Origin: Candidatus Omnitrophota bacterium
Lineage (GTDB): Bacteria > Omnitrophota > Omnitrophia > Omnitrophales > Aquincolibacteriaceae
Length of the DNA: 64,000 nucleotides
Direction: 5' to 3'
Assembly (NCBI GenBank): GCA_043732705.1
Contig: JAYTHE010000029.1
Coordinates: 70,445 to 134,444, forward strand
This document shows positions 4,671-20,579 of this stretch, one piece after another. Made by a program: the position numbers and the translations under genes. Under the pieces are notes generated by a model. The model was not told where the DNA came from. It saw only the letters and a list, made by a program, of their open reading frames with translations, and did not search any database. Each line of letters opens with the position of its first letter. Positions within the stretch are counted from its first letter, which is position 1.

Positions 4671-4681
4671 AATCAACTAAA

Positions 4682-5065: not shown

Positions 5066-5076
5066 AGTTTCTCCTG

Positions 5077-5190
5077 TTATCCTTGACGTTGCTTATGCTT
5101 CGGATTTGTGCAAATCACATAAACCCGACGCTCGCGTCTTACAATTTTACAATTTTCACAAATTCTTTTTACTGACGAACGTACTTTCAT
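5077..5190 (-). CDS. rpmJ: 50S ribosomal protein L36
   Basis: Manual translation [37 protein letters not shown] (Cys4 zinc ribbon); not in ORF track because <60 aa. Confidence 0.85.
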
Positions 5191-5237
5191 TTTAAACCCC
5201 TTAACCTAACTTATTTTATCTTTACCCAGGCAACCTG

Positions 5238-5268
5238 CCGATTGCGCCGGCGGCGCAGAGGCAAAATG
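5238..5268. repeat. PE (infA-rpmJ spacer), tail overlaps infA stop
   Basis: ccgattgcgccggcggcgcagaggcaaaatg. Confidence 0.75.
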
Positions 5269-5487
5269 TCATTTCACGCGGTAAGTAATTCGCCCGCGGC
5301 TTAAATCATACGGTGAAAGTTCCACCTTAACCGAATCTCCCGGTAAAATGCGGATATAATTCATACGCATTTTTCCCGAAATATGCGCAAGAATAATGTG
5401 CCCATTTTCAAGTTGAACACGAAAGCGAGCATTAGGCAGCGGTTCCACCACTTTACCTTCTACTTCAATCGCTTCTTCTTTGGCCAT
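5269..5487 (-). CDS. infA: translation initiation factor IF-1
   Basis: 72 aa, S1-like fold sequence [30 protein letters not shown]. Confidence 0.95.
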
Positions 5488-5539
5488 TATTCTTACTTAT
5501 CTCTCTGTTTCGGCGACTACAACAGTTAAAACTGCTTTG

Positions 5540-6325
5540 CTATTTGACGGTTGGGCATCGCCCAGAGCCAAAGTTGTAATAGCCGCCTGTTAAATTTATA
5601 AATCCGTTTTCCGTAAACGCTATCGTATCTTCATAATGGCTTGCCCAGGAACGGTCTTTCGTTACCACGGTCCAGCCATCCGCTAAAATCTGTACTTCAT
5701 GCGAACCCTGCGTCACCATCGGCTCAATCGCCAAAACTAACCCCGGCTCAATCTTTAACCCTCTGCCCGCTTTCCCATAATTTGGAACCTGCGGTTCTTC
5801 ATGCAAACTTTTTCCGATTCCGTGCCCGACAAAATCTCGCACAACACCGTAACCGCGTGATTCAATATGCGCTTGAATCGCTGCTGACAAATCACCGATT
5901 TGACAGCCCGGTTTATACGCTGCAAGTCCCGCTTCCATTCCACCTTTGGAAGCATCGATCAACTTCTGGGTTTTCGCATCGGCTCCGCCGACGCACCAGG
6001 ATCTTGCCGCATCCGAATAAAAACTTTTGTATATCACTCCAATATCAAAACTTACCAGGTCGCCTTTTTTCAACTTTTTATTTCCCGGAATTCCATGCAC
6101 CACTTCTTCGTTCACCGAGATGCAGGCTACCTTCGGAAAACCGCGATATCCTTTAAATGCGGATGTGCCGCCATTTGCACGAATTATTTTATCCGCAATC
6201 GCGTCCAAATCATTCGTTGTCGCGTTTTCCACAACCGTCGGCTGCACAGCGGCAAAGATCTTTTGTATGATCATCGCCGCTTCCTGCATAATTTCAATCT
6301 CGCGCTTAGATTTAAGCTCGATCAT
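5540..6325 (-). CDS. map: methionine aminopeptidase type I (C-terminal 10 aa encoded by a repeat element)
   Basis: 261 aa; metal-binding D/D/H/E/E motifs (FVGHGIG, LAIEPM); location between adk and infA. Confidence 0.9.
   Translation of the reverse strand: MIELKSKREIEIMQEAAMIIQKIFAAVQPTVVENATTNDLDAIADKIIRANGGTSAFKGYRGFPKVACISVNEEVVHGIPGNKKLKKGDLVSFDIGVIYKSFYSDAARSWCVGGADAKTQKLIDASKGGMEAGLAAYKPGCQIGDLSAAIQAHIESRGYGVVRDFVGHGIGKSLHEEPQVPNYGKAGRGLKIEPGLVLAIEPMVTQGSHEVQILADGWTVVTKDRSWASHYEDTIAFTENGFINLTGGYYNFGSGRCPTVK
5546..5580. repeat. PE inside map 3' coding end
   Basis: gacggttgggcatcgcccagagccaaagttgtaat encodes FGSGRCPTVK. Confidence 0.8.
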
Positions 6326-6981
6326 GCAATCAGACTGAGTTTTTCAAAGAGCTTCGTTATAATCGGCTGCAGTTCCGGAACGTCATAATCGCCCGGAATA
6401 TTTTGCAACAAACCACGTTTTTGATAAAAATTGATCAAAGGCGCTGTTTCATTCTGATAAACATTTAACCGGTTGCGAATCGTTTCCGGCGCGTCATCCT
6501 TGCGCTGAATTAACTTCTCGCCTGTATCATCACAAATACCTTCAACTTTCGGAGGCATATTGCGAATGTGATAAACGCGGCCCGTTGTCGGGTTAACGCG
6601 ACGGCCCGAGAGCCGCTCTAAAATTACTTTTTCCGACGTTTCAAAGTTTAAAACCAAATCCAACGGAATATTTTCTTTCTCAAGAAACTTTTCCAACGCT
6701 TCCGCTTGTCCGAGCGTGCGCGGGTAACCATCCAAAATAAAGCCTTTGCCGCTTGGAAGAGCATTAATCTCGGAAAACATCATTTCATTCACAAGATCAT
6801 CAGAAACTAATGCGCCTTTCTCAATCGTCGAACGCGCTTGAACGCCAAGCCCTGTGCCTTCTTTCATATGCCGCCGCAAAATATCGCCTGTCGCTAGCTG
6901 CGTTAGGTTATATTTGTCTTTCATCACTTTCGCGTGCGTACCTTTTCCCGCTCCCGGGGGGCCTAAAAGAACAATGCGCAT
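6322..6981 (-). CDS. adk: adenylate kinase (with zinc-lid CxxC...CDDTG)
   Basis: MRIVLLGPPGAGKGT P-loop; LID with C..C. Confidence 0.95.
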   Translation of the reverse strand: MRIVLLGPPGAGKGTHAKVMKDKYNLTQLATGDILRRHMKEGTGLGVQARSTIEKGALVSDDLVNEMMFSEINALPSGKGFILDGYPRTLGQAEALEKFLEKENIPLDLVLNFETSEKVILERLSGRRVNPTTGRVYHIRNMPPKVEGICDDTGEKLIQRKDDAPETIRNRLNVYQNETAPLINFYQKRGLLQNIPGDYDVPELQPIITKLFEKLSLIA

Positions 6982-6986
6982 GATGC

Positions 6987-8321
6987 TTAAGCCCGCCGCG
7001 ACTTCAATTTGCCGTGCTTAATGAAACCTTCATAGTGACGCATTAAAAGCTGTGATTCGATTGTTTTCATAGTGTCTAAAATAACACCCACAATAATTAA
7101 AAGCCCGGTGCCGCCGAAAAAACTCGCCACTAAGAAAGGCAATTTTAAAAAATGATTCGATGAAACAACGCTCGGGAAAATCGCGATAAAAAATAATGCG
7201 ATCGCGCCCGAGGCAGCGATACGCGTCACAACAAAATCTAAAAATTCGGCTGTGTTTTTTCCAGGACGAATACCCGGAACAAAGCCGCCTGATTTCTGTA
7301 AATGATCAGCTACTTCTATCGGATTGAAAGTGATCGCTGTATAGAAAAAAGTAAAAAACAAAATTAATGCGCCATAAATAATTGAGTAACCCAAGCTGCC
7401 GTAGCTTAGAAAATGCGCCACGGAAGTTAATGATCCAGCTTGCGGAAAAAATCCCGCGATGGTTGCAGGAAATAAAATAACAGACTGCGCAAAAATAATA
7501 GGGATAACTCCGGCCTGGTTTACCTTCAAAGGAATATAAGTGCTGTTCCCGCCATAAACCCGGCTGCCGCGAATTTGCTTCGCGTGCTGAACAGGAATTT
7601 TTCTTGTCCCCTGAATAATACAGATGACTCCAATAACCGTACCAAAGAAAAGCGCTACCATAATCACAAGCTTCCACCACTGTAACTGGCCGGTGTTAGC
7701 AAGCACAATCGTTTGACGCAAAGCTTCGGGAATCCCGTCGACAATACCCGCCGCAATCAAAATTGAAATTCCATTTCCAATTCCAAATTTATCGATTTGT
7801 TCGCCGAGCCACATAATAAACGCCGTACCCGTCGTCATCGTCAACATCGCCGTTAGACGAAAAGCCCAACCCGGATTCGGGACAATCACTTCATCTTGAA
7901 ACATACGCGGATTTTCAAGCCAAAGCGCAATAAAAAAAGTTTGAATCAATCCCAAAATTACCGTGCCATAACGTGTGTATTGAGTTATTTTTTTACGGCC
8001 TTCTTCGCCTTCCTTCGTCATTTTTTCCAATGCCGGAATAACAACCGCCAAAAGCTGTAAGATAATGGAGGAGGAAACATAGGGCATGATTCCCAAAGCA
8101 AAAATCGACGCCTTTTGAAGCGCTCCACCGGTAAACATGCCCATAAAGCCAAGTAAGTTGCCGCCGCCCATTTTTTGAAAAAAGGCCGCAAGCGCCGCTT
8201 CATCCACGCCCGGAACCGGAACGAAAACGCCCAAGCGATAAACCACAATCATCGCCAAGGTAAAAAGCACCTTGTTGCGAAGTTCGGGGATTTTGAAAAT
8301 ATTTTGAAAGGCTTGCAGCAT
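6987..8321 (-). CDS. secY: preprotein translocase subunit SecY
   Basis: 444 aa, 10 TM, location after rplO. Confidence 0.95.
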   Translation of the reverse strand: MLQAFQNIFKIPELRNKVLFTLAMIVVYRLGVFVPVPGVDEAALAAFFQKMGGGNLLGFMGMFTGGALQKASIFALGIMPYVSSSIILQLLAVVIPALEKMTKEGEEGRKKITQYTRYGTVILGLIQTFFIALWLENPRMFQDEVIVPNPGWAFRLTAMLTMTTGTAFIMWLGEQIDKFGIGNGISILIAAGIVDGIPEALRQTIVLANTGQLQWWKLVIMVALFFGTVIGVICIIQGTRKIPVQHAKQIRGSRVYGGNSTYIPLKVNQAGVIPIIFAQSVILFPATIAGFFPQAGSLTSVAHFLSYGSLGYSIIYGALILFFTFFYTAITFNPIEVADHLQKSGGFVPGIRPGKNTAEFLDFVVTRIAASGAIALFFIAIFPSVVSSNHFLKLPFLVASFFGGTGLLIIVGVILDTMKTIESQLLMRHYEGFIKHGKLKSRRA

Positions 8322-8334
8322 GAAAAGGCTCTTA

Positions 8335-8766
8335 TTACGCTTCGATTAAAACGGCTTTACCGCCGGCTGCTTCGATTTTTGTTTTTGCCGAAGCGCTAAA
8401 AGCATGCGCCTTTACTGTGATAGCTTTTTGAATTTCGCCTGTACCAAGAATTTTGACCGATGCATTCTTTTTACGGATCACGCCATTTTGTACCAAAATT
8501 TCGGGGCTGATATCAGAAACCGTCATTTCAGCCAGCTGATGCAAGTTGACCGCCAAATAGCGCTCCTTCAAATCTTCACGGCTGAATCCGCGTTTTGGCA
8601 GCTTGCGCCAAAGAGGATTTTGTCCACCTTCAAAACCAGCGCGACGGCTATAACCTGAACGCGCTTTTTGACCTTTATGTCCCCTAGTCGAAGTTCCGCC
8701 GTGTCCGGATGAACCTCCGCGGCCAAGACGTTTCGGTTTTTTTTGATACGGCTTTTTTGCTTTCAT
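8335..8766 (-). CDS. rplO: 50S ribosomal protein L15
   Basis: Gly/Arg-rich N-terminus, KLGRGGSSGHGGTSTRGHKG. Confidence 0.9.
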   Translation of the reverse strand: MKAKKPYQKKPKRLGRGGSSGHGGTSTRGHKGQKARSGYSRRAGFEGGQNPLWRKLPKRGFSREDLKERYLAVNLHQLAEMTVSDISPEILVQNGVIRKKNASVKILGTGEIQKAITVKAHAFSASAKTKIEAAGGKAVLIEA

Positions 8767-8782
8767 AATTTTCTTACGCCTT

Positions 8783-8815
8783 TACGGTTGGGCGAAGCCC
8801 AGAGTGAAATATCAC
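8783..8815. repeat. PE (rpsE-rplO spacer; where rpmD would be)
   Basis: tacggttgggcgaagcccagagtgaaatatcac. Confidence 0.8.
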
Positions 8816-9405
8816 AGGCCTTCATAACCAACATCACTTTCTTCTTTTCGAAGGCGCTTATTCACAAGCGATTTTAAACCTTCTACAGTTGCTTTAAAAA
8901 CATTGACTGAGTTATCGCTGCCGAGACTCTTGGTCAAAATATCTTTGATTCCGCAAGATTCACAAACGGCACGAACCGCGCCGCCGGCAATAATTCCCGT
9001 TCCGGGAGCCGCCGGTTTCAAAAGCACTCTTGCTGCGCCGAAACGGCCGACAACTTCATGAGGTATCGTCGTCCCTTTCATAATAATCTTAATCGAACGC
9101 TTACGTGCGGCGGTGACAGCCTTGCGAATTGCATCCGCAACTTCGCCCGCTTTACCCTGGCCAAAACCAAGCTCGCCGTGGCCATTTCCGACCACAACAA
9201 GCGCGCTAAAACTAAAACGCTTACCACCCTTAACAACTTTGGAGGAACGGTTAATATCAACAACCTTTTCAAAATTAGTTGATTTAGCTTCCGGTGTAGA
9301 TCCGTCCAAAACATCCACAACTGCCAATGTCGCAACCGAAGGCACCGCCAAACGTTTTGCGCGTTCTGCTTCGGATTCTTTTTTTGCTTTCAACTTATCT
9401 GCCAT
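8812..9405 (-). CDS. rpsE: 30S ribosomal protein S5 (with ~35-aa N-terminal extension)
   Basis: S5 dsRBD and C-domain motifs ([29 protein letters not shown]); start chosen at MADKLK with SD; L30 gene absent downstream. Confidence 0.9.
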
Positions 9406-9420
9406 ATTTCCTTCTTTATT

Positions 9421-9512
9421 TCTGCTCTGGGTTTCACCCAACCGCAAATTTTATTTTCTTACTTTATGTCTATTCCGCCGGTTGAGCTAAAGCTCAGAGG
9501 CAAAATTAATAG
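9421..9512. repeat. PE x2, opposite orientations (rplR-rpsE spacer)
   Basis: tctgctctgggtttcacccaaccgc ... gccggttgagctaaagctcagaggcaaaattaat. Confidence 0.8.
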
Positions 9513-9513
9513 A

Positions 9514-9876
9514 TCAGAACTGTATTCCGCCTTCGCGCAATCCGTCGGCCAAGGCTTTGATGCGGCCATGATACAAGTATCCTGCACGATCAAAGCTAAT
9601 ACTCGAAATTCCTTTTTCCTTCATTTTTGCCGCATAAAACAGACCCAAATTTTTTGCCAAACCTGTTTTATCCGCATCTTTCGGAGCTTGCTTTAAAAAA
9701 GCTTTATCCTGTGTGGAAAAAGAAATCAATGTGCGCTGTGCAAAATCATCCACCACTTGAGCCTGAAGGCTGCGAGCCGAGCGATGAACTGACAAACGAG
9801 GACGTTCCGGTGTTCCGGAAATTTTTTTGCGAACGCGCACATGCCGATGTTGTCTGCCAAATTCTCTTGTATTCAT
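9514..9876 (-). CDS. rplR: 50S ribosomal protein L18
   Basis: 120 aa, RLSVHRSARSLQAQVVDD. Confidence 0.9.
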   Translation of the reverse strand: MNTREFGRQHRHVRVRKKISGTPERPRLSVHRSARSLQAQVVDDFAQRTLISFSTQDKAFLKQAPKDADKTGLAKNLGLFYAAKMKEKGISSISFDRAGYLYHGRIKALADGLREGGIQF

Positions 9877-9923
9877 AAATCAATCCTCTTCGATTCTAAA
9901 TTTTTGCTTAACGTTGCTGCTAA

Positions 9924-9958
9924 CGGCGGTTGCGCTTCAGCGCAGAGCCAAAACGTTA
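9924..9958. repeat. PE (rplF-rplR spacer)
   Basis: cggcggttgcgcttcagcgcagagccaaaacgtta. Confidence 0.85.
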
Positions 9959-10495
9959 ACTGCCGACTTTCTTACCTTGTTTGCGGCGCACTTGCTCGCC
10001 GACATAACGAATTCCCTTGCCCTTATACGGCTCCGGAGGACTAAAACTGCGAATTTCAGCGGCAGCTTGCCCCACCGACTGCTTATCTGCACCTGTAATA
10101 ACAATACGTGTTGGACTTGGACACTTGATATCAAGACCTTCTTCGATTTGGTAATCACTCGGGTGAGTAAAGCCAAGTACCATACTTAACACTTTACCCT
10201 TGATCGCCGCCTTAAAACCAACACCGATAAGCTCCAACTCTTTAACATATCCTTCAGTGACACCTTGAATCATATTACGAATGACTGCACGCGTTGTACC
10301 ATGCAAAGAGCGGTCAAGCGGCTCATCCGAAGAGCGGGTCACCACAACTTCTTTATCTTTTGATTCAACTTTGATTTTCGAGTGCACATCAAAATTAAGC
10401 TCCCCCTTAGGCCCCTTGACTTTGATCTTTTGACCCTGAATCGTAATTTGTACTTTATCCAGAACTGATACTGGTTTTCTTCCTACTCTCGACAT
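9956..10495 (-). CDS. rplF: 50S ribosomal protein L6
   Basis: MSRVGRKPVSV... Confidence 0.95.
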   Translation of the reverse strand: MSRVGRKPVSVLDKVQITIQGQKIKVKGPKGELNFDVHSKIKVESKDKEVVVTRSSDEPLDRSLHGTTRAVIRNMIQGVTEGYVKELELIGVGFKAAIKGKVLSMVLGFTHPSDYQIEEGLDIKCPSPTRIVITGADKQSVGQAAAEIRSFSPPEPYKGKGIRYVGEQVRRKQGKKVGS

Positions 10496-10537
10496 AATTC
10501 TTTTCCTTAAACTTTACTTAACCTTTTTAGCACTTAT

Positions 10538-10570
10538 ACGATTGCGCTTTAGCGCAGAGCAAAACAATAC
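10538..10570. repeat. PE (rpsH-rplF spacer)
   Basis: acgattgcgctttagcgcagagcaaaacaatac. Confidence 0.8.
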
Positions 10571-10578
10571 AGACAGCG

Positions 10579-10977
10579 TTACCAAACTGTGCAAATAAAT
10601 TCGCCGCCAACATTCATTTCTTTGGCCTGACGATCGGTCATAAGACCTTTTGAAGTCGAAACAATCGCGACGCCAAAACCACCCTGAACATGCGGAACTT
10701 TTTTAACACCAACATAGCGGCGCAATCCGGGAGTCGAAATACGGCGGATCCCCTGAATCGCAGGCTTGCGGCCTTTAACATATTTTAAATGAACGCGCAC
10801 AAACTTCTTGGCGCCTTCTTCAAAAACCTTCGAGCCTTGAATAAAACCTTCTTTTTCAAGGATCTCAAGAATCTTGACCGCAACGTTCGAAGAAGGAGTG
10901 GTGACCTTGTCCAAACGCGCCTGAGATGCATTGCGCAAAACCGTTAAAAAATCACCTACAAAATCACTTTGAGACAT
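10579..10977 (-). CDS. rpsH: 30S ribosomal protein S8
   Basis: 132 aa, DFVGDFLTVLRNA... Confidence 0.95.
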   Translation of the reverse strand: MSQSDFVGDFLTVLRNASQARLDKVTTPSSNVAVKILEILEKEGFIQGSKVFEEGAKKFVRVHLKYVKGRKPAIQGIRRISTPGLRRYVGVKKVPHVQGGFGVAIVSTSKGLMTDRQAKEMNVGGEFICTVW

Positions 10978-10994
10978 GCGTTCTTTTTCTCCTA

Positions 10995-11090
10995 TTGCGG
11001 TTGTGCGCCTTTAAGCGCACAGAGCCAAATATCACTAACTCGATTTAATTACCTTTTTGCGCTTAAGCGCAAAAGAGGCGAAAAATTACA
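10995..11090. repeat. PE x2 (rpsZ-rpsH spacer)
   Basis: ttgcggttgtgcgcctttaagcgcacagagccaaatatcac ; tttttgcgcttaagcgcaaaagaggcgaaaaattac. Confidence 0.8.
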
Positions 11091-11092
11091 GG

Positions 11093-11278
11093 TTACCAGC
11101 TCGAGCGAACAACGCCCGGAATTAATCCGTCGTTAGCAAGCTCGCGAAAGCAAATTCGGCAAACCTGATATTTACCAATATATCCGCGCGCGCGGCCGCA
11201 ACGCTGACAACGATTATATTTTTGAACTTTAAATTTGGGTGTGAGCCGTTGCTTGACAACTAAACAGGTCTTTGCCAT
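11093..11278 (-). CDS. rpsZ: 30S ribosomal protein S14 type Z (zinc-binding, 61 aa)
   Basis: [10 protein letters not shown]...CRICFRELA Cys4 motif. Confidence 0.9.
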
Positions 11279-11296
11279 GAAATTCTCTTCCTCTTA

Positions 11297-11917
11297 TTAT
11301 CTTTTTTTGAATGGAAAACCGAGAAGCTCCAAAAGCTTTTTGGCTTCCTGGTTATTCGTTGCCGTTGTCACAAAAGTCACGTCCATACCCTGGACTTTTT
11401 TAACTTTATCAAATTGAACCTCGGAAAAAACGGTTTGTTCCGTGATTCCGATCGAAAAATTTCCGCGGCCGTCAAAGCTTCGGTCCGAATATCCTTGAAA
11501 ATCGCGGATACGCGGCATCGCTAAATTGAACAAACGGTCCATAAATTCATACATGCGCGCTTTGCGGAGAGTTACTTTCAAACCGATCGGAGAGTTTTCG
11601 CGCAGTTTAAACGCGGAAATCGCCTTCTTGGCGCGGCGCACAACCGGCTTTTGTCCGGTGATCAAAGAAAGTTCTTCAGCACATTGCTCAAAAATCTTGA
11701 TATCGGAAGGGCCTTCTTTAATACCCATATTCACAACGATTTTTTGAAGCTTCGGAATCTGCATCTTGTTCTTATAGCCAAATTCTTTAGCAAGCTGCGG
11801 AGAAATTTCCGCATCATACTTCGCCTTCAATCGCGGCGTATAATTTGATTTCTCATTTATTTTTTTTGCCGGTTGAGCGGAGCGCTCAGAGGCAGATTTT
11901 TTATCGTCCGTTGCCAT
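11297..11917 (-). CDS. rplE: 50S ribosomal protein L5 (N-terminal ~25-aa extension containing a repeat element)
   Basis: L5 core KLQKIVVNMGIKEG...; ATG 11917 preceded by AGGAGAGG SD and overlaps rplX stop (TAATATG). Confidence 0.9.
   Translation of the reverse strand: MATDDKKSASERSAQPAKKINEKSNYTPRLKAKYDAEISPQLAKEFGYKNKMQIPKLQKIVVNMGIKEGPSDIKIFEQCAEELSLITGQKPVVRRAKKAISAFKLRENSPIGLKVTLRKARMYEFMDRLFNLAMPRIRDFQGYSDRSFDGRGNFSIGITEQTVFSEVQFDKVKKVQGMDVTFVTTATNNQEAKKLLELLGFPFKKR
11868..11907. repeat. PE inside rplE 5' coding extension (inverted orientation)
   Basis: gccggttgagcggagcgctcagaggcag encodes SASERSAQPA on minus strand. Confidence 0.8.
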
Positions 11918-11918
11918 A

Positions 11919-12227
11919 TTAGAAAACCTCTCCTGACTTTTTAGCCAAGCGCTGCTTAGTGCCGTCTGCAAGCCGTGAATATCCTACGCGGGTGGGCTTA
12001 CCAGAACGCGGGCAAATCAATTTCACGTTTGAAACATGAAGTTTGCCCTCGACTTTGGAAATTCCGCCTTTGGGATTATCCTGGCTCTTTCTTAAATACA
12101 CCGTTTGATAATTAATTTTTTCAACGAGCAATCCCTGCTGCGCTGAAAAAACACGCATCACTTTACCTTTTTTACCTTTATCTTTACCCGCAATAACGAG
12201 CACTTCATCGCCTTTTCTGATCTTCAT
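11919..12227 (-). CDS. rplX: 50S ribosomal protein L24
   Basis: MKIRKGDEVLVIAGKDKGKKG KOW motif. Confidence 0.9.
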   Translation of the reverse strand: MKIRKGDEVLVIAGKDKGKKGKVMRVFSAQQGLLVEKINYQTVYLRKSQDNPKGGISKVEGKLHVSNVKLICPRSGKPTRVGYSRLADGTKQRLAKKSGEVF

Positions 12228-12229
12228 GA

Positions 12230-12598
12230 CTACACAACCTCCGGAGCCAATGAAATAATTTTTGTGAATGCGCAGTCGCGAAGTTCACGCGCTACGGGAC
12301 CGAAAATGCGTGTTCCGCGAGGGTTCTTCGCATTATCGATCAAAACAATAGCATTCGACGAAAAACGAACCGTTGATCCGTCTTTGCGCTGAATCGGAAA
12401 ACGTGTACGAACTACAACCGCCTTAACAACCTCACCCTTTTTAACGGCGGAAGTGGGAATAGCTTCTTTAACCGCAGCGGTAATAATGTCGCCCACTTCG
12501 GCAACCAAAGTTCCATGGCGCCCGATAACACCGATCATCGAGGCTTTTTTTGCGCCGCTATTATCGGCAATATCAAGAATAGAACGAATCTGAATCAT
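12230..12598 (-). CDS. rplN: 50S ribosomal protein L14
   Basis: [18 protein letters not shown]; internal Met chosen over ORF-track start. Confidence 0.9.
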
Positions 12599-12852
12599 GC
12601 TGCCACCACTTTCGTCACGCGCCAACGCTTACTCTTGGATGTCGGACTTGTTTCAACGATATGAACCTTGTCACCGGTTTTTGAAATATTTTTCTCATCA
12701 TGCGCATAGCATTTGATCTGACGCGAAATAACTTTTTTATATTCAGAATGTTGAAAAACCTTGGTTACTTCAATAACGCGAGTCTTGTTCATTTTGTCGC
12801 TTGTAACGACACCTTCTAAAATACTAGCTGATTTTTTTACGGCTTCGGACAT
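12595..12852 (-). CDS. rpsQ: 30S ribosomal protein S17
   Basis: 85 aa, OB fold sequence. Confidence 0.9.
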
Positions 12853-12853
12853 A

Positions 12854-13150
12854 TTACGACGCGCTCCTGCTGGTTATATTTTTACTCTGGGTCTTCGACC
12901 CAACCGCGGCCTTGCTCTGAGACTTCGTCTCAGTCGCACTTTGTTGAGACTTTGTCTCAACTGCTTTTTGCTGATTCGCCACTGTTAGAACTCTTGCAAT
13001 ATCACGGCGCATTTCTTTAATCGTGGAATGTTTTTCCAGCTTGCCCAATTTCGCATCAAAACGAAGCTGCATGAGTTGCTTTTTCAGCTGTGTTTCTTTT
13101 TCCGCTAATTCTTCTTTGCTTAAATTTTGGTAATCAGCTACTTTTGCCAT
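12854..13150 (-). CDS. rpmC: 50S ribosomal protein L29 with ~35-aa C-terminal tail encoded by three palindromic repeat units
   Basis: MAKVADYQNLSKEELAEKETQLKKQLMQLRF L29 core; TAATATG junction with rplP; tail AVETKSQQSATETKSQSK... Confidence 0.85.
   Translation of the reverse strand: MAKVADYQNLSKEELAEKETQLKKQLMQLRFDAKLGKLEKHSTIKEMRRDIARVLTVANQQKAVETKSQQSATETKSQSKAAVGSKTQSKNITSRSAS
12876..12964. repeat. PE x3 forming the rpmC C-terminal tail
   Basis: tactctgggtcttcgacccaaccgcgg ; ctgagacttcgtctcag ; ttgagactttgtctcaa. Confidence 0.8.
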
Positions 13151-13151
13151 A

Positions 13152-13568
13152 TTAGATTCCTTCACGCTTCACAAATTTGGTCCGGAACGGGATTTTATGC
13201 GCGCAGAGGCGAAAGGCAGACTTCGCGAGCAATTCCGGAATTCCTGACATTTCAAAAATAATGCGTCCCGGTTTAATAACACAAACATAAAACTCAGGCG
13301 AACCTTTACCCTTACCCATACGAGTTTCGGGCGGACGCTTGGTATACGGCTTATCCGGAAAAGCACGCAGCCACAATTTACCACTGCGTTTGACGTGACG
13401 TGAAAGAGCCACACGCGCCGCTTCAATTTGAATTGCTGTCAAATAACCGCGGTCGATTGCCTTTAAAGCATAATCTCCGAACGCCAAGCTTGATCCGCGG
13501 GTAGCAACACCGCCCATGGACCCACGCTGCATTTTTCTATATTTGACACGTTTCGGCATTAACGACAT
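13152..13568 (-). CDS. rplP: 50S ribosomal protein L16
   Basis: [13 protein letters not shown]... Confidence 0.95.
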
Positions 13569-13585
13569 AAATTCCTTTTCTTCTT

Positions 13586-13620
13586 TTGCCGCTGAGCGTT
13601 AGCTCAGAGGCAAATATTAC
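13586..13620. repeat. PE (rpsC-rplP spacer)
   Basis: ttgccgctgagcgttagctcagaggcaaatattac. Confidence 0.8.
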
Positions 13621-13622
13621 CC

Positions 13623-14351
13623 TTAGGCTTTGACCGCTGCGGTATCCGCTGAAGCAGCCGCATTTACTTCAGCTTCTTTGCTTGCTTGAAGCTCACGCTC
13701 CAAACGTTTTTCAGCCTGTTCTTTCTTAACTAAAATATCACCCTTATAGATCCAAACTTTGCAACCGATGGTTCCGTAAGCCGTGAAAGCTTCAATAAAA
13801 CCATAGTCAACATCGGCGCGAAAAGTTTGAAGCGGAACCTTGCCTTCATGATACCCTTCAGCACGCGCGATTTCCGCGCCGCCCAAGCGTCCCTTAACCT
13901 GCATCTTAATTCCAAGCGCGCCTTTTTGCATGGCAAGCTGCATTGCGCGTTTCATCGCGCGACGAAAGCCAATACGTTTTTCAAGCTGCTGAGCTACGTT
14001 TTCAGCCACAAGCTGCGCGTCAATCTGCGGAACCTTAACTTCCTTAATATCCAAAAAGATTTCGTTTTTTGTAATCTTAGATACATCGTCTTTGATCTTG
14101 TCAATTTCTTGTCCGCGACGCCCGATGATAACGCCGGGTTTTGCGGCGAAAATTCTTACGCGCACGCGTCCCTGTGAACGTTCGATTTCAACGCTGGAAA
14201 TTCCAGCTGGCCCAAGTTTCTTTTTAATGTACGTACGGATTTTCAAATCCTCGTGCAATAAAACACCCGCATTTTTATTGGAAAACCAGCGGGCTTTCCA
14301 AGTGCGGATGTATCCTAATCTGATTCCGTACGGATGAACTTTCTGGCCCAA
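13623..14351 (-). CDS. rpsC: 30S ribosomal protein S3
   Basis: [13 protein letters not shown]..., KH domain. Confidence 0.95.
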
Positions 14352-14401
14352 AACGTTTTCTCCTTTTACTCAAATTGTCTTTATGACAATTTGAAATTTA
14401 A

Positions 14402-14863
14402 TTACTGCGCCTTAGCGGCCGCTGATTTCTTGGTTGTCTTTTTTGCTTTTTCTTCGACAACCTGTGTATAAACTGGATTCACAACTTTCTTACCTTCAGC
14501 CACAATCACAGTCACGTGAGTTGTGCGCTTCAACATACGATCCATACGCCCCTGAGAACGCGGAAAAATACGTTTCATCGTCGGACCGTTGTCGGTCAAA
14601 ACTTCCTTAACGATCAGCTTGGATTCATCCAAACCCTTGACCTTTGCGTTGGCTAAAGCGCTGTTCAAAACTTTTGCAATAATACGTGCACCTTTTTTAT
14701 TAGTGACATGCAAAATCGCAACTGCATCGGATGCAGGCTTCTTACGCACAATGTCCGCAACCAAACCCATCTTACGGGTTGAAATTCTTGCGTACTGCCA
14801 ACTCGCAACCGCATGCTTTTCTGATACTGTTCTATTTTTTGCTAACGTTCCGCTATGGCTCAT
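14402..14863 (-). CDS. rplV: 50S ribosomal protein L22 (Lys/Ala-rich C-terminal extension)
   Basis: LVADIVRKKPASDAVAILHVTNKKGARII... Confidence 0.9.
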   Translation of the reverse strand: MSHSGTLAKNRTVSEKHAVASWQYARISTRKMGLVADIVRKKPASDAVAILHVTNKKGARIIAKVLNSALANAKVKGLDESKLIVKEVLTDNGPTMKRIFPRSQGRMDRMLKRTTHVTVIVAEGKKVVNPVYTQVVEEKAKKTTKKSAAAKAQ

Positions 14864-14912
14864 TTCTTTATCTCACTTTTTGTTCGTAATAATGCTTTTA
14901 TTACTGCTCCGT

Positions 14913-14948
14913 CTTGCGGTTGGGCAAAACCCAGAGCTAAAATTTAAC
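14913..14948. repeat. PE (rpsS-rplV spacer)
   Basis: cttgcggttgggcaaaacccagagctaaaatttaac. Confidence 0.85.
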
Positions 14949-14950
14949 TG

Positions 14951-15250
14951 CTATGTTTTAGCGACGGTACCAGCTGCCGCGGCTTTTTCGCCCGATTGAC
15001 CGTGACCGCGGAATTTCCGGGTTGGAGCAAATTCGCCGACGCGATGCCCCACCATTTCTTCCGTTACAAACAAACCTAAAAAATCTTTTCCATTGTGAAT
15101 CGAAAGCGTCGCCCCTACAAAATCAGCTGTGATAGTTGAACGGCGAGACCATGTTTTAATGGGCTTGCGGTCTTTCGTCTGAACAGCCTTTTGGACTTTC
15201 ATCAGTAACTTCTCGTCAACAAATACACCTTTTTTCGATGAACGGCTCAT
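14951..15250 (-). CDS. rpsS: 30S ribosomal protein S19
   Basis: [16 protein letters not shown]... Confidence 0.95.
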
Positions 15251-15297
15251 TTTATTTTTTCCCTATCTAATCTTGTTTTATCAATTCTTGCTTACAA

Positions 15298-15331
15298 CAG
15301 CGGTTGCGCTTTAGCGCAGAGCCAAATATTA
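15298..15331. repeat. PE (rplB-rpsS spacer), tail supplies rplB stop
   Basis: cagcggttgcgctttagcgcagagccaaatatta. Confidence 0.85.
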
Positions 15332-16156
15332 CTTTCTTCTGTCTTTCACAATAAACTTGTTCGTGATTTTCGATTTCTTACGAGTCTTAAGACCTTTGGA
15401 TTTTTGACCCCAAGGACTCTTCGGATGTTCATTCGACTTCGACTTCGCCTCACCACCACCCATCGGATGGTCAACAGGGTTACGAACAATCGCGCGCGTA
15501 ATTGGGCGACGGCCCATCCAACGTGTTTTTCCGGCTTTTCCGTATACTAATTTTTCATGTTCAAGATTTGAACATTGGCCGATTGTCGCGAAAGCATTGA
15601 CAGGAACCAAACGCACTTCACCCGAGGGCATTTTCACGTGAGCATAAGCGCCTTCTTTTGCAAGAATCTGTGCCATTCCGCCTGCGGCACGAACCATTTT
15701 TCCGCCGCGGCCGGCAAGAAGCTCAATATTATGAATCGGCGAGCCTTCAGGAATACGGCTCAAAGGAAGATGATTGCCAAGCTTTACTTCTGCTTCGGGG
15801 CCGCTCACAATTTTTTCGCCGACTTTCAAACCATCCGGGCAAATGATGTAGCGCTTTTCACCATCTTCATATTGGACAAGCGAAATACGCGAGCTGCGAT
15901 TGGGGTCATATTCCACGGTCAGCACAGTTGCGGGAATTCCAAAACGTTCGCGGCGAAAATCAACGATACGAATGCGGCGCTTATGCCCGCCTCCGCGGCC
16001 ACGCTTCGTGATATGTCCGTGATTGTTGCGGCCACCGGAAGAATGCTTGCTTAACGTCAACGGCCAATGCGGTTTGCTGACTGTTAATTCAGCAAAGTCT
16101 GATACCTGCTTGTAGCGCCCTGACGGCGTAATTGGTCTAAATTTTGTCAATCCCAT
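15329..16156 (-). CDS. rplB: 50S ribosomal protein L2
   Basis: 275 aa, GRNNHGHITKRGRGGGHKR. Confidence 0.95.
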   Translation of the reverse strand: MGLTKFRPITPSGRYKQVSDFAELTVSKPHWPLTLSKHSSGGRNNHGHITKRGRGGGHKRRIRIVDFRRERFGIPATVLTVEYDPNRSSRISLVQYEDGEKRYIICPDGLKVGEKIVSGPEAEVKLGNHLPLSRIPEGSPIHNIELLAGRGGKMVRAAGGMAQILAKEGAYAHVKMPSGEVRLVPVNAFATIGQCSNLEHEKLVYGKAGKTRWMGRRPITRAIVRNPVDHPMGGGEAKSKSNEHPKSPWGQKSKGLKTRKKSKITNKFIVKDRRK

Positions 16157-16197
16157 ATTTTTTTCTCTATTTTTTTCTCTATTTTTTTCTGTTACTT

Positions 16198-16235
16198 AAT
16201 CGCGGTTGGGCAAAGCCCAGAGCCAAAATATTACT
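16198..16235. repeat. PE (rplW-rplB spacer)
   Basis: tcgcggttgggcaaagcccagagccaaaatattac. Confidence 0.85.
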
Positions 16236-16236
16236 G

Positions 16237-16524
16237 TTACTTCGTAAAATCGATCTTCTCGCCCTTTTGGAGCGTGACCGTTGCTTTTTTCCAGCTGGCG
16301 GTAAGCCCGGGCTGAGCGCGTAAACGGCGCTGTTTTCCATCGTAATTAATCGTATTGATCTTAGTCACATGAACGTTATAAAACTTTTCTACAGCGGACT
16401 TGATCTGCTTCTTATTGCTCGCGCGGTGAACACGAAAAGAGTATTTTCCGAAAGACTCAGATTCACGCGTCGCTTTTTCGGTTACAACCGGCTCCAAAAT
16501 TACGTCGAACATATGCAGCTTCAT
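16237..16524 (-). CDS. rplW: 50S ribosomal protein L23
   Basis: MKLHMFDVILEPVVTEKAT; internal start chosen to avoid overlap with rplD. Confidence 0.85.
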   Translation of the reverse strand: MKLHMFDVILEPVVTEKATRESESFGKYSFRVHRASNKKQIKSAVEKFYNVHVTKINTINYDGKQRRLRAQPGLTASWKKATVTLQKGEKIDFTK

Positions 16525-16525
16525 A

Positions 16526-17185
16526 TTACTTCGCTCCTGCTTCTTTCGTGGACTTCGTTCCGACAACACGCGCTTCAATCGCAGCCAATGCATCCTGATC
16601 AATAATCAAACGATCGCGCTGCAAAACATCGTACGCGGTAAAGTTACGCGCTTCTTTGACATCAATCCATTCAAGCATATTGCGTGAAGCTTTCTTCAAA
16701 TTTGCATCACTTTCTTTCACCACGCAAAGTGCGCGGCGGCCATCTGTCGGCTGCGCCTTCATCAAGTCAACCCATTCTTTGGTTTTGGATGTTGAAAGCT
16801 TGATACTTTCCAAAACAACCAATTTCTTTTCAGCCGCTTTAAAACTTAAAGCTGAAGCCAAAGCCGAAGTTCTCATTGACTGTGACAAATGCACGGAATA
16901 ATCACGTGTCAAAGGTCCAAAAATTGTTCCGCCGCCTTTCCACAAAGGCGAACGATTGGAACCCGCACGAGCACGGCCCGTTCCTTTTTGCTTCCAGGGC
17001 TTCTTACCGCCGCCGCTCACATTACCGCGAGTTTTTGTATGCGCGGTACCGCTGCGCAAATTTGCAGCATAACCATTGCGAACTAAGTTCAAAAGACGCT
17101 GATTCACCCGAACTCCGAAAACTTCCGGATTCAGGACAACTTCACTTTTCTTTTTTCCCTCTTTAGAGTAAAGGGGTGCCTTCAT
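16526..17185 (-). CDS. rplD: 50S ribosomal protein L4
   Basis: 219 aa, position between rplC and rplW. Confidence 0.9.
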   Translation of the reverse strand: MKAPLYSKEGKKKSEVVLNPEVFGVRVNQRLLNLVRNGYAANLRSGTAHTKTRGNVSGGGKKPWKQKGTGRARAGSNRSPLWKGGGTIFGPLTRDYSVHLSQSMRTSALASALSFKAAEKKLVVLESIKLSTSKTKEWVDLMKAQPTDGRRALCVVKESDANLKKASRNMLEWIDVKEARNFTAYDVLQRDRLIIDQDALAAIEARVVGTKSTKEAGAK

Positions 17186-17211
17186 ATAATTTTCCTTAAT
17201 AATTTAGCGGT

Positions 17212-17940
17212 CTATTTTTTTTCCGCTTCAGTTTTCTCAATCGCCGGTTGAGCAGAAGGCTCAGAGGCAGAATTCGACTGGGCCGAATGAACTAGCCAAG
17301 ACTTTGCTTTCCCTTTTTTCAGAGAATTCTTAATTACAAGATATCCGCCGTTATGCCCCGGAATACTCCCGCGGACAATTAAAACGCCCTGCTCTTCATC
17401 AGCATCGACCACAAAGCAATTTGATTTGGTAATAGTATCTGTACCCATATGTCCGGCCATTTTACGTCCGCGATAAGTGCGGCCCGGGGTCGAGTTTTGT
17501 CCGGTTGATCCGGCTTCGCGGCCAAACTTAGAACCATGAGCGGCTTCGCCGCCCTTAAAACCGTGGCGCTTAATAACACTTTGAAACCCTTTACCTTTGG
17601 AAACTCCGGTCACATCAATATAGTCACCTGCTTCAAATTGCTTCACGGAAAGCTGCGCGCCCAGCGTCAAACCTTCGAGTTTTTCCGAACGGATTTCACG
17701 GATAAAATGCATCGCGTCTTTAACGCCGGATTTCTTAATGTGACCCATGAGGGCCTTGCCCAAATTCTTTTCTTTTGCCTTGCCATAAGCAAGCTGAACA
17801 GCCTGATAACCGTCTTTTTCTTTGGTGCGAATCGCCGTTACATAGCAAGGCGAGCAATCCAAAACCGTGACCGGAATTTGGCGGCCATCTTCATCAAACA
17901 CCTGTGTCATTCCAACTTTTTTTCCGAGCAAACCAATCAT
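17212..17940 (-). CDS. rplC: 50S ribosomal protein L3
   Basis: MIGLLGKKVGMTQVFDEDG. Confidence 0.95.
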   Translation of the reverse strand: MIGLLGKKVGMTQVFDEDGRQIPVTVLDCSPCYVTAIRTKEKDGYQAVQLAYGKAKEKNLGKALMGHIKKSGVKDAMHFIREIRSEKLEGLTLGAQLSVKQFEAGDYIDVTGVSKGKGFQSVIKRHGFKGGEAAHGSKFGREAGSTGQNSTPGRTYRGRKMAGHMGTDTITKSNCFVVDADEEQGVLIVRGSIPGHNGGYLVIKNSLKKGKAKSWLVHSAQSNSASEPSAQPAIEKTEAEKK

Positions 17941-17958
17941 TTTCTTTTCCTTTTATTA

Positions 17959-18034
17959 TTGATGCGCATCGTTCCCGATCGCAGAGCAAAATATTTTTTC
18001 ATTGCGCTTGAGCCAAAGGCTCAGAGCCCTTTAC
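17959..18034. repeat. PE-like x2, variants (rpsJ-rplC spacer)
   Basis: ttgatgcgcatcgttcccgatcgcagagcaaaatat ; attgcgcttgagccaaaggctcagagccc. Confidence 0.6.
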
Positions 18035-18345
18035 AATTTGATCTGTACGTCCACGCCCGCTGGTAAATCGAGCTTCTGGAGCGCATCCACCGTGCGGGAT
18101 GTCGGCTCTTCCAATTCAATCAAACGCTTGTGTGTACGAACTTCGTATTGGTCACGCGCCTTCTTATCAATATGCGGTCCGCGCAAAACAGTCGTCTTCC
18201 AAATGTGCGTCGGCAAAGGAATCGGGCCGATGATTTTAGCGCCGGTGCGGCGTGCTGTTCCGACAATTTCATGCACTGATTGATCCAGCACACGGCTGTC
18301 GTAAGCTTGCAGCTTAATTCTAATTTTTTCTTTTACTTGCGCCAT
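18031..18345 (-). CDS. rpsJ: 30S ribosomal protein S10
   Basis: [21 protein letters not shown]. Confidence 0.95.
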
Positions 18346-18413
18346 TTTTTTAAATCCTGTTTTATTTTTTTCGCGATTCGAGTTTTATCGAGAATCGCAT
18401 TTAAATCACTGGC

Positions 18414-20495
18414 TTAGACTGTAATAATTTTTTCTGCGACGTTGCGCGGAACTTCTTTATAACCCTGAGGCTCCATAGTGTAAGTTGCACGGCCCTGAGA
18501 AAGAGAACGGGACGCCATCGCATAACCAAACATTTCGCTCAAAGGAACATGTCCAATGATTGATTTCAAAATTCCGCGGTTTCCCATTTCCTGAATAACG
18601 CAACGGCGGGACTGCAAGTCACCGACAATGTCGCCCATATATTCATCCGGAACCACAACTTCAACTTTCATGATCGGCTCAAGCAAAATCGGGCTGGCTC
18701 TTCTGAAAGCTTCTTTGAAAGCAAAAATGCCGGCCATTTTAAACGCAATTTCTGAAGAGTCAACATCGTGATAGCTGCCATCGGTTACGGTGGCTTTAAC
18801 GTCAGTCACAGGAAAACCCGCCAAAACGCCGCCGCTGCAAGCGTCACGAACACCATCTTCAATTGCGGGAATAAATTCACGGGGAATGCGTCCACCGACA
18901 ACTTTATTAACAAACTCAATGCCTTTTCCGGATTCCAAGGGTTCAACTTCAAGGTAGCAATGGCCGTATTGCCCGCGTCCACCGGACTGCTTGATAAACT
19001 TACCTTCTGCCTCGGCTTTATTTGTAATCGTTTCCTTGTAAGCAACCTGCGGCTTACCGACATTTACTTCAACCGCGTATTCACGCTTCATGACATCAAC
19101 TTTAATATCAAGGTGCAATTCGCCCATGCCGCCGATAAGTGTTTGACCTGTTTCCATATCGCTACGTACGCGAAAAGTAGGATCTTCAGAAACAAGACGA
19201 CCCATAACATCCGACATACGGTCACGGTCAGCTTTAGTTTTCGGTTCAATGGAAAGCCAAACTACAGGTTCCGGGATAAACAAACTTTCAAGAATGATGG
19301 GGTGATCTTCGTCACAAATCGAATCGCCGGTTTTGGCTTCTTTGATACCGACAGCAGCAACAATATTACCTGCGCCAGCTTCTTCAATTTCTTCACGCTT
19401 GTTGGCATGCATCAAAACCAAACGGCCAAGGCGTTCTGTTTTGCGGGTACGCGGATTATAAATATAAGAACCGCTTTTAAGGGTTCCGGAATAAATGCGG
19501 ATATAAGTTAAAGAACCCACAAACTTATCACTTGCGATTTTAAACGCAAAACATGCGAGCGGTTCATTGTCACCGACTTTACGAATAATCGGCTTACCTT
19601 CATCGTTCGGATCTTTGCCTTCAAGCGGCGGAACGTCACAAGGCGCGGGCAAATAATTTACAACCGCATCAAGCAATTGCTGAACACCCTTGTTCTTAAG
19701 CGCTGAACCACAAATAACGGGCTGAACTTTAATATCAATTGTGGCTCTGCGAATTGCGCGGCGGATTTCTTCGATGTTGGGTTCTTTACCTTCGATAAAC
19801 TTATTCATTAATCCGTCATCATGCTCGGAAAACTTTTCGATCATGAATTCGCGCGCTTTTTTTGCGGCAGCTTGATATTCTGCGGGAATTTCTTGGACTG
19901 TATATTTTTCGCCTTTATCCGCGGTATCAAAAATATTGGCTTTCATTTCGACTAAATCAATTAAGCCAACAAAGTTTTCTTCAGCGCCCATCGGGATTTG
20001 AATCGGAACCGCATTTGCACCGAGCTGGTCGCGCATTTGTTGAACGTTTGGTTCAAAGGTCGCGCCGGTGCGGTCCATCTTATTAATGAAAGCGATACGG
20101 GGAACGCGGTAACGATCAGCCTGGCGCCAAACAGTTTCAGATTGCGGCTCAACGCCCTCAACCGCACCAAACACCGCAACACAGCCATCAAGAACGCGCA
20201 TGGAACGTTCAACTTCAATTGTGAAATCTACGTGGCCGGGAGTATCAATAATATTGAGACGGCAATCATTCCAAAAGCAAGTCGTCGCGGCAGATGTAAT
20301 CGTAATTCCGCGTTCCTGCTCTTGAACCATCCAGTCCATGACGGCTGTACCTTCATGAACTTCACCAATTTTATAGGTGCGGCCGGTGTAATAAAGAATA
20401 CGCTCAGTTGTTGTCGTTTTACCGGCATCGATATGCGCCGCAATTCCAAAGTTGCGGATTTTTTCCAGCGGATAATGTTTTTTGTCGTCTGCCAT
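18414..20495 (-). CDS. fusA: elongation factor G
   Basis: 693 aa; [13 protein letters not shown]1, DTPGHVDF G3, NKMD G4. Confidence 0.97.
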
Positions 20496-20525
20496 AATCT
20501 TCTATAACTATTTTTTTATTCTTTT

Positions 20526-20562
20526 AAAAATAAACGTTCGGTAAGTTTTAACTTACCGAACC
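20526..20562 (-). terminator. hairpin + U-tract between rpsG and fusA (attenuator-like)
   Basis: GTTCGGTAAGTTAAAACTTACCGAAC followed by GUUUAUUUUU on minus transcript. Confidence 0.45.
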
Positions 20563-20579
20563 AATATAACTGTCTCGTA

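Follow-up and report, generated by a model that had tools for sequence, protein, structure and literature searches.

The C-terminal tail of ribosomal protein L29 in an Omnitrophota bacterium is probably a tandem array of REP-like hairpin repeats

We analyzed a 64,000-nucleotide (nt) stretch of a metagenome-assembled contig of a Candidatus Omnitrophota bacterium (JAYTHE010000029.1), hereafter called the window, focusing on rpmC, the gene for ribosomal protein L29 (uL29), and on the palindromic repeats at its 3' end. rpmC lies on the minus strand, a point left unstated in the initial annotation of this DNA, within a ribosomal-protein cluster of the order rplP-rpmC-rpsQ-rplN. It begins with ATG at 13150-13148 (MAKVADYQ...) and terminates with TAA at 12856-12854, and the rpmC-rpsQ junction reads TAAtATG, as it does in relatives. 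The three palindromes that the initial annotation had reported in this open reading frame (ORF) were all found exactly as listed, namely, TGGGTCttcGACCCA at 12888-12902, TGAGACttcGTCTCA at 12918-12932, and TGAGACtttGTCTCA at 12945-12959, and the frame indeed passes through them without a stop and ends against the rpsQ start. On the mRNA strand, the hairpins are translated as V-ETKSQ, T-ETKSQ, and V-GSKTQ, within the C-terminal sequence ...NQQKAV-ETKSQ-QSAT-ETKSQ-SKAAV-GSKTQ-SKNITSRSAS. About the last third of L29 is thus encoded by three in-frame tandem hairpin repeats of about 32 bases (copies A, B, and C; Table 1). The extension had been put at about 35 residues; it amounts to 33 compared to orthologues of 65 amino acids (aa), the final RSAS being ancestral.

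Shuffle comparisons ruled out that these palindromes occur by chance. The window contains 50 perfect hairpins of the 6+3+6 type, versus 24.0 ± 4.0 (maximum, 32) in dinucleotide shuffles, and three instances of the GAGAC palindrome pattern TGAGACNNNGTCTCA, versus 0.07 expected. Tandem Repeats Finder reported a 27-nt period at 12917-12974, and copies A and B make up a 27-nt tandem repeat. Between copies B and C, the stem has two changes on each arm, every one of them compensated. The mRNA segment encoding the tail folds into three stem-loops (-43.7 kcal/mol; z = -4.0). At the protein level, the tail is rich in Lys, Ser, Gln, and Thr and net basic (six K, one R, and two E), and AlphaFold gave it a confidence score (pLDDT) of 42 to 61, without secondary structure past residue 70, compared to about 90 for core residues 1 to 60.

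A protein search yielded 42 L29 homologues, those with names being labeled Omnitrophota or Omnitrophica, and the DNA of ten orthologous rpmC loci was compared. The two checks that had been proposed at the outset, alignment of L29 with its orthologues and a search for the copies in close relatives, both came out in favor of an insertion: the variation lies between the core and the (R)SAS in which nearly all homologues end, and the site is empty in relatives L002 and L003. The homologues range from 65 to 119 aa. Their core is almost invariant up to ...RVLTVxNQ and nearly all of them terminate in (R)SAS, with 0 to about 54 residues in between. Proteins of 65 aa (...NQKRSAS) correspond to the empty site, AAT CAA AAG/AGG AGC GCG TCT TAA in L002 and L003, the common proteins of 77 to 80 aa to one decayed copy (for instance, GCGGTTGCaGt-cAA-GCCGCAaAGtAAAATA in L087), and those of 86 to 119 aa to two to about five copies. 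Counted on the DNA, there are no units in L002 and L003, one in L085 and L087, two in L081 and L083, three in the window, and about five in L082. At all ten loci the array is in frame and ends with RSAS-TAA-(n)ATG, the rpmC stop abutting the rpsQ ATG. RSAS is fixed because its codons, AGG AGC GCG TCG, contain the AGGAG Shine-Dalgarno sequence of rpsQ. Orthologues with the same tail but without palindromic DNA had been named as a finding that would speak against the initial annotation; this was encountered only in a harmless form, since the tails of the 77- to 80-aa proteins are a decayed copy of the same element.

The unit adjoining RSAS is orthologous in four genomes (the window, L083, L081, and L082). 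Its stem is TGGGTC/GACCCA in the window, TGGGGC/GTCCCA with one G.U pair on the sense strand in L083, and TGGGGC/GTCTCA with two G.U pairs in L081, and it contains one mismatch in L082. In this small sample, the sense-strand G.U wobbles are A.C mismatches on the opposite strand. Judged from these sequences, the series runs from G-C through G.U to A-U, as is typical of RNA helices, and the L29 hairpins seem to keep their pairing as RNA. L081 also carries a unit identical to copy A, and L082 has more GAGA(C) units; the GAGAC/GTCTC stem is otherwise rare among the repeats described below.

The best L29 match to the window was 91% identical, and none was identical; for the NuoL of the window (44621-46594), a protein with 100% identity (P0043, on a 156,692-nt NCBI contig) was found. 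In the source genome, rpmC may be annotated differently or uncalled. Four relatives have an antisense copy of the repeat in the rplP-rpmC spacer (L002, 9945-9979; L081, 187-221; L082, 371-405; L085, 9940-9974). In the window rplP and rpmC have no spacer (TAAtATG, 13148-13154), and this copy is therefore absent or lost there.

The L29 repeats belong to a dispersed family. Among all perfect hairpins listed for the window, 14 share the flanks GGTTG...CAGAG. A covariance model built from 20 copies (R1; 35 positions, with an inner 6-bp and an outer 4-bp helix) and run with cmsearch, filters off, found 41 matches in the window at E < 0.01 and 44 at E < 0.1. On the element strand, the consensus is (T)GC(C/G)GGT-TGNGC(N)-loop-(N)GCN'CA-GAG(G/C)CAAAAT(ATTA), or, in short, TGCCGGTTGNGCC-loop-GGCN'CAGAGGCAAAAT. 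The element spans about 32 nt (27 to 35), with an inner stem of 5 to 7 bp, a loop of 3 to 5 nt, and an outer helix of 2 to 4 bp; position frequencies over the 44 copies revealed no conserved flanks beyond it. Ribosomal clusters of 39 unrelated genomes, other Omnitrophota included, gave the model no match at E ≤ 0.01 over their 733,154 bases, and a strict scan for the palindrome plus its flanks returned 15 hits in the window versus 2 chance matches in about 1.1 Mb of controls. Copies are present in relatives L001 to L003 and L081 to L092, and their number in the same 20-kb cluster varies from 4 to about 25 (4 in L002, 7 in L003, and 16 in L085). An exact-pattern scan of metagenome contigs gave 18 loci, with 49 model matches in 137 kb, at housekeeping genes such as thrS-infC-rplT, rpsB-tsf-pyrH-frr, gyrA, atp, and rpmE-prfA. 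The family is real and specific. In the Omnitrophota papers that were searched, neither palindromic nor intergenic repeats are described.

Pairing was assessed over 71 aligned copies. Inner-helix cells were paired in 98% of cases, versus 21 to 53% in slid controls, and pair 12-32 (stem position 3) was CG in 23 copies, AU in 22, GC in 19, and UA in 6, never being unpaired; these inner-helix figures are partly ascertained, because perfect palindromes were chosen as seeds and paired positions raise the score of the model. The outer helix, in which pair 5-38 was GC in 36 copies and CG in 21 and was not used in choosing the copies, is free of that bias, as are the comparisons of orthologous sites.

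About 30 of the 44 copies in the window are intergenic. They fill almost all spacers of the alpha, spc, S10, str, rpoBC, L10/L11, tuf, and atp operons, and here as in close relatives the ribosomal-protein, rpoBC, atp, and nuo operons have a copy in nearly all gaps between their cistrons. Relative to the local genes, 57 copies are antisense and 13 sense (P = 1e-7), and within the window the bias holds for minus-strand genes (27:9) as well as for plus-strand genes (6:1). At the independent metagenome loci, codirectional genes flank 25 copies (21 antisense and 4 sense), convergent genes flank 7, and divergent genes flank none. The inner stem of about 35 antisense intergenic copies begins 7 to 22 nt past the upstream stop codon, and the A/T-rich tail of the element (reverse complement, TAATATTTTGGCTC) often abuts or provides the upstream TAA. 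Since the GC skew, negative or near zero, does not change sign across the switch of gene strand at 35 kb, the orientation bias seems to be tied to transcription, and replication direction is unlikely to be its cause. At L29 the copies have the sense orientation, which is the rarer one.

Copies mostly stand alone or in direct tandem. Inverted doublets, in which an antisense copy is followed by a sense copy, occur in the window at 9417(-)/9474(+) (9417-9507), 29939(-)/29962(+) (29939-29995), and 43356(-)/43414(+) (43356-43447) and in L085 at 13053(-)/13078(+) (13053-13112) and 13494-13582. They are reminiscent of REPINs, and the doublet at 29939/29962 has a common CCGCGG junction. Tandem arrays are not peculiar to the L29 tail, since L110, a higher-GC metagenome contig (Ga0189290_100046), has an intergenic direct array of four copies with 33- to 35-nt spacing at 12689-12830. 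At 31362-31395, a sense copy includes the rplK (L11) stop codon in its 5' flank (GAA GGT TAA CGGTTGCGCG), and its 3' end is just upstream of the rplA start. Direct repeats gaaaaaaatagagaaaaaaatagagaaaaaaatATG stand right before the rplB start (16150-16200, minus strand), downstream of the copy at 16198-16230.

About 12 of the 44 window copies are inside reading frames (Table 1). In L5, an in-frame insertion of about 57 to 60 nt past codon 4 gives MATD-DKKSASERSAQPAKKINEKSN-YTPRLK; relatives read MATAQEKYTPRLK or MATDKYVPRLK, the latter being the empty site as seen in L085, and the site is also empty in L087, L002, L003, and L089. No clear target-site duplication was found at this insertion, which is A-rich on both sides. 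The copy in the C-terminal tail of L3 has orthologues with compensated stems (TGAGC./.GCTCA in the window, TGGGTC/GACCCA in L085, and TGAGTC/GACTCA in L087) and is decayed in L002 and L003. At the NuoL loop copy (45785..45819), some orthologues have ASGxSSQP and others have no insert; the second NuoL copy (46273..46307) is shared with P0047 only, other orthologues being 5 aa shorter there. In either orientation, TGA occurs in one of the element's three frames, as deduced from the consensus. The usual antisense reading is ASEPSAQPA, and the sense reading, that of L29, is AVExKxQ. The initial annotation had spoken of in-frame insertion into essential genes, and the presence of the same family in frame in L5, L3, AtpB, AtpH, and NuoL bears this out.

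Table 1. Coordinates of rpmC, its repeat units, and other family copies in the window (matches and scores refer to model R1)
Feature	Position	Strand	Remarks
rpmC (uL29) coding sequence	12854..13150	-	98 aa + TAA; ORF call, PF00831 homologues, conserved core residues 1-60
rpsQ (S17) start codon	12850..12852	-	ATG one base past rpmC TAA
33-codon (99-nt) insert versus 65-aa orthologues	12869..12967	-	Residues 62-94 (KAVETKSQQSATETKSQSKAAVGSKTQSKNITS); empty site in L002/L003, protein alignment
Copy A, sense, gcaGTTGAGACaaaGTCTCAACaaag	12934..12968	-	Codes AVETKSQQS; 3' flank degenerate; perfect 8-bp stem; match 12943-12961, 14.8 bits
Copy B, sense, GCGACTGAGACgaaGTCTCAGAGCAAG	12907..12941	-	Codes ATETKSQSK; match 12912-12939, 25.5 bits, E = 7e-5
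Copy C, sense, GCGGTTGGGTCgaaGACCCAGAGTAAAAATA	12877..12911	-	Codes AVGSKTQSKNI; full family flanks; 35.9 bits, E = 7e-8
Ancestral rpmC 3' end, AGG AGC GCG TCG TAA (RSAS, stop), with rpsQ AGGAG Shine-Dalgarno	12854..12868	-	Kept in nearly all 42 homologues at any insert length
Copy antisense to rplE (L5)	11865..11899	+	38.7 bits
L3 C-terminal tail copy, antisense, in frame (SASEPSAQPA)	17240..17274	+	33.6 bits
NuoL loop copy, antisense, in frame (SHSASASSTQPA)	45785..45819	-	42.1 bits
Second NuoL copy, antisense, in frame (SSPLSQGLNRK)	46273..46307	-	35.2 bits
Third NuoL copy, candidate insertion (IIFWSSAPTRHPQ)	46020..46054	-	34.1 bits; length same as orthologues
Copy inside atpH, antisense, in frame (ISASEPSAQPEV)	39024..39058	-	38.9 bits; OSCP domain
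atpB C-terminal tail copy, antisense, in frame (HSESLTQPVSGH, stop)	37784..37818	-	31.9 bits
Aminotransferase C-terminal tail copy, antisense, in frame (ILPLRQGATGTHA, stop)	543..576	+	32.7 bits
Methionine aminopeptidase (Map) C-terminal tail copy, antisense, in frame (NFGSGRCPTVK, stop)	5543..5575	+	23.1 bits
About 30 further intergenic copies	1784..53219	mixed	Starts 1784+, 2412+, 2439+, 3539-, 4638-, 5234+, 8780+, 9417-, 9474+, 9922+, 10534+, 10993+, 13585+, 14912+, 15296+, 16198+, 18000+, 21497+, 21533+, 29939-, 29962+, 30028+, 30628+, 31362-, 31826-, 32624+, 32662+, 32898+, 33039+, 43356-, 43414+, 53187+; model R1

Palindromes of another kind, CAGATCCGGGATCTG and TAGATCCCGGATCTA with the common flanks CGAAAC...GGGGGGGCC, are found at 60165-60179, 60666-60680, and 60687-60701, inside a giant minus-strand ORF (53833..63969; at least 3,378 aa). 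They look like internal repeats of that ORF and are unrelated to the hairpin family.

Taken together, these data make it probable that a hairpin repeat, specific to the clade and similar to repetitive extragenic palindromic (REP) elements, forms a short tandem array that became part of the L29 reading frame and encodes the tail. The claim of the initial annotation that the tail consists of in-frame palindromic element copies is upheld by the model scores of the three units (35.9, 25.5, and 14.8 bits), by the empty sites, and by the variable copy number. A single sense-oriented copy would have entered, or arisen in, the ancestor of the clade just upstream of the rpsQ ribosome-binding site, and the array would then have expanded and contracted locally by tandem duplication or slippage of 27- to 33-nt units. 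Local amplification is suggested because units A and B have the locus-specific GAGAC/GTCTC stem in common. The survivors would be the frame-preserving versions, which use the stop-free frame CCG GTT GAG CCG AAG GCT CAG AGG CAA: frame and freedom from stops would be enforced because rpmC must terminate at the TAA abutting the rpsQ ATG for translational coupling, and a frameshifted or TGA-containing copy would uncouple rpsQ. Translation of the copies would then be the default outcome, yielding a basic tail of 33 residues that is predicted to be disordered. uL29 is located on the solvent side of the ribosome at the tunnel exit, beside uL23, where such a tail should be tolerated. Extending from the uL29 C terminus on the solvent side near the exit, the tail would thus be tolerated rather than required.

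As for the family, it probably acts in mRNA as REP elements do, either as a 3' stabilizer or as a brake on termination or processing past stop codons, and it is probably spread or homogenized by some DNA mechanism. In Escherichia coli, REPs that stand no more than about 15 nt from a stop codon reduce translation through ribosome stalling and tmRNA. We infer an RNA function, ribosomes that carry the tail, and mobility, the latter only from presence or absence and from copy number because no transposase or target-site duplication was found. That the elements are selfish, as the initial annotation put it, is accordingly suggested by the differences in presence and copy number.

Several observations weigh against the absorbed-repeat reading or the arguments used for it. 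No transposase, whether a REP-associated tyrosine transposase (RAYT) or another, and no target-site duplication were seen in the window or at the loci inspected: there is no Y1 transposase among the 10 non-ribosomal ORFs of the window, and the ORFs beside the metagenome copies are housekeeping genes. In the 77- to 80-aa orthologues, the L29 copy is no longer a palindrome, and the hairpin is therefore dispensable at this locus. The inner-helix covariation is in part a product of ascertainment, as stated above. When G.U and A.C were compared between strands over the whole family, one outer pair, columns 3-40, showed an excess of A.C, and these columns are probably no real pair in one subfamily. 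Finally, the GC-skew argument against a replication-linked bias is indirect.

Conceivably, though this is rather doubtful, the elements are more than selfish repeats and form a punctuation code in RNA that spans whole operons and is found in this Omnitrophota clade alone. A hairpin standing 7 to 22 nt past almost every stop codon of highly expressed operons would be kept by compensatory evolution and read by a putative RNA-binding or nuclease factor that sets cistron-wise stability or couples termination to reinitiation; where a spacer is lacking, as between rpmC and rpsQ, the code would lie inside the frame and force the peptide AVExKxQ or ASEPSAQPA on ribosomal and respiratory proteins. A related explanation of the tail, which we consider quite unlikely, is that the hairpins are host-encoded punctuation, with a dedicated factor reading flanks and stem and thereby setting the stability, processing, or termination of each cistron; the L29 copies would tune rpsQ/rpmC, and the peptide would be a by-product. 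That orientation follows transcription on both strands, that placement past the stop codons is tight, that stems are compensated at the orthologous L3 and L29 sites with G.U intermediates on the sense strand, and that highly expressed operons are enriched in copies and divergent gene pairs have none between them would all fit such a role. However, the L29 copies would offer an RNA unlike that of most copies because they are in the minority orientation, and in many relatives the L29 copy is decayed or, in L002 and L003, the site is empty. Moreover, the range of 4 to about 25 copies in one 20-kb cluster among relatives, the tandem arrays, and the in-frame coding insertions resemble repeat dynamics and not designed sites, and no candidate binding protein was identified.

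An ordinary Lys-rich, low-complexity extension selected as protein, its palindromy an accident of the repeated xTKSQ, is very improbable. The tail is basic and predicted to be disordered, as are many rRNA-binding extensions, and long C-terminal extensions of L29 exist elsewhere: those of L008, L011, L013, L019, L023 to L025, L037, and L043, which are from Egibacteraceae, Hyphomicrobium, and other Alphaproteobacteria, align to window residues 3 to 92, and model R1 found no element copies in the loci searched. Yet the units match, with their flanks outside the stem, a nucleotide family that has about 30 copies in intergenic DNA, in either orientation. Copy C alters the peptide from ETKSQ to GSKTQ yet keeps the pairing, and the antisense element encodes another peptide, ASEPSAQPA, in L5, L3, AtpH, and NuoL. 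The family evidence thus already contradicts selection of the tail as protein. An assembly or sequencing artifact, be it a missed stop, which had been named as a possible refutation, or a collapsed or expanded repeat, is barely credible, for although the window comes from a metagenome-assembled contig and short tandem repeats are prone to misassembly, independent assemblies of several projects (ENA, Logan, JGI, and NCBI) share the architecture, with 1 to 5 units in frame and RSAS-TAA-ATG at the end.

Known RNA signals were rejected as well. An intrinsic terminator or an S10/spc attenuator is ruled out by the lack of a U-run on the mRNA strand, where CAAAG, GAGCAAG, and GAGUAAAAA come after the L29 hairpins, and by the lack of enrichment, with 15 terminator-like sites at 9 to 19 kb versus 14.9 in shuffles; no L29 hairpin qualifies on the minus strand. 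On the plus strand, copy A (12943-12961) is followed by TGCTTTTTGC and scores as terminator-like, a single case. A known RNA family is ruled out by Rfam, which gave only two tRNAs at gathering score in the window and no match at E ≤ 1 in 12700-13200.

With these findings, the in-frame colonization of essential genes by small palindromes, seen before in Rickettsia and a few Proteobacteria, is extended to an uncultured phylum of the PVC group; they also reveal an element of 9 to 11 codons that is small enough to build tails of variable length on a core ribosomal protein. With the natural series of 0, 1, 2, 3, and 5 units, the tolerance of the ribosome for repeat-derived peptides near the exit tunnel becomes addressable, and the regular placement and orientation of the copies offer a testable case for hairpin-mediated control within ribosomal operons. 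On the practical side, such repeats can make gene calls too long or displace their termini, and they can disturb the ribosomal-protein alignments used for Omnitrophota phylogeny.

Among known repeat systems, REPs, which occur in Proteobacteria and other phyla, are dispersed imperfect palindromes of 20 to 40 nt that are mostly extragenic, with occasional intragenic copies (PMC3733652). The present family resembles REP, REPIN, and BIME elements in being an imperfect palindrome within that size range (about 32 nt) that is able to form a stem-loop. As with REPs, its many dispersed copies are mostly extragenic, downstream of genes in codirectional or convergent contexts, and transcribed within operons; inverted doublets, clusters, and intragenic copies occur occasionally, and copy numbers differ sharply between relatives (PMC3733652). 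It departs from REPs in its conserved flanks, (T)GC(C/G)GGT and GAG(G/C)CAAAAT(ATTA), in a stem position 3 that uses all four base pairs, in its strong antisense bias and fixed distance past stop codons, in arrays that are direct tandems and do not alternate in orientation, and in its host phylum; no RAYT was found in the window or beside the metagenome copies. Neither a GTAG nor a CGTC tag is found at either end of the 44 copies on either strand, and membership in the GTAG/CGTC REP superfamilies is ruled out by the missing tag (PMC3733652).

Rickettsia palindromic elements (RPEs) are about 105 to 146 bp long and reported to end in CGTC (PMC3733652, PMC3184786). Like them, the present family places palindromes in frame in essential genes as hydrophilic segments at termini or surface loops, sparing the protein, with read-through copies also in L3, AtpB, AtpH, Map, and the aminotransferase, and it shows filled and empty sites among orthologues (L29, L5, and the NuoL loops). 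Unlike RPEs, its unit measures about 32 nt instead of 100 to 150 bp, is unrelated in sequence and mostly intergenic, and is in tandem at L29. MIRU-VNTRs (mycobacterial interspersed repetitive units) are tandem units at the gene junctions of operons, with open frames that overlap or fuse with the neighboring genes and with a strain-variable number (PMC3184786). The L29 array matches this pattern in its 0 to 5 units and its preserved TAAtATG junction, but MIRU units are 40 to 100 bp long, are not this simple hairpin, and usually form separate small ORFs, whereas the units here are of 27 to 33 nt and belong to the present hairpin family. The betaproteobacterial repeat element (BRE) is, as are our repeats, both intergenic and internal to several protein genes (PMC3184786); sequence, size, and host are unrelated, and PMC3184786 and PMC3733652 report no ribosomal-protein tandem tail for BRE-type repeats. 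In-frame fusion of small repeats is documented for RPEs, BRE, some REPs, and others (PMC3184786, PMC3733652), and because of this the phenomenon itself is already known; the likeness to Rickettsia RPEs drawn in the initial annotation is apt, and the rarity that it ascribed to such insertions elsewhere is overstated. What is new is the family, which is tagless, has conserved flanks and a freely covarying stem position, is antisense biased, and keeps a fixed offset from stop codons, together with Omnitrophota as its host phylum and a translated tandem array of variable number on a core ribosomal protein.

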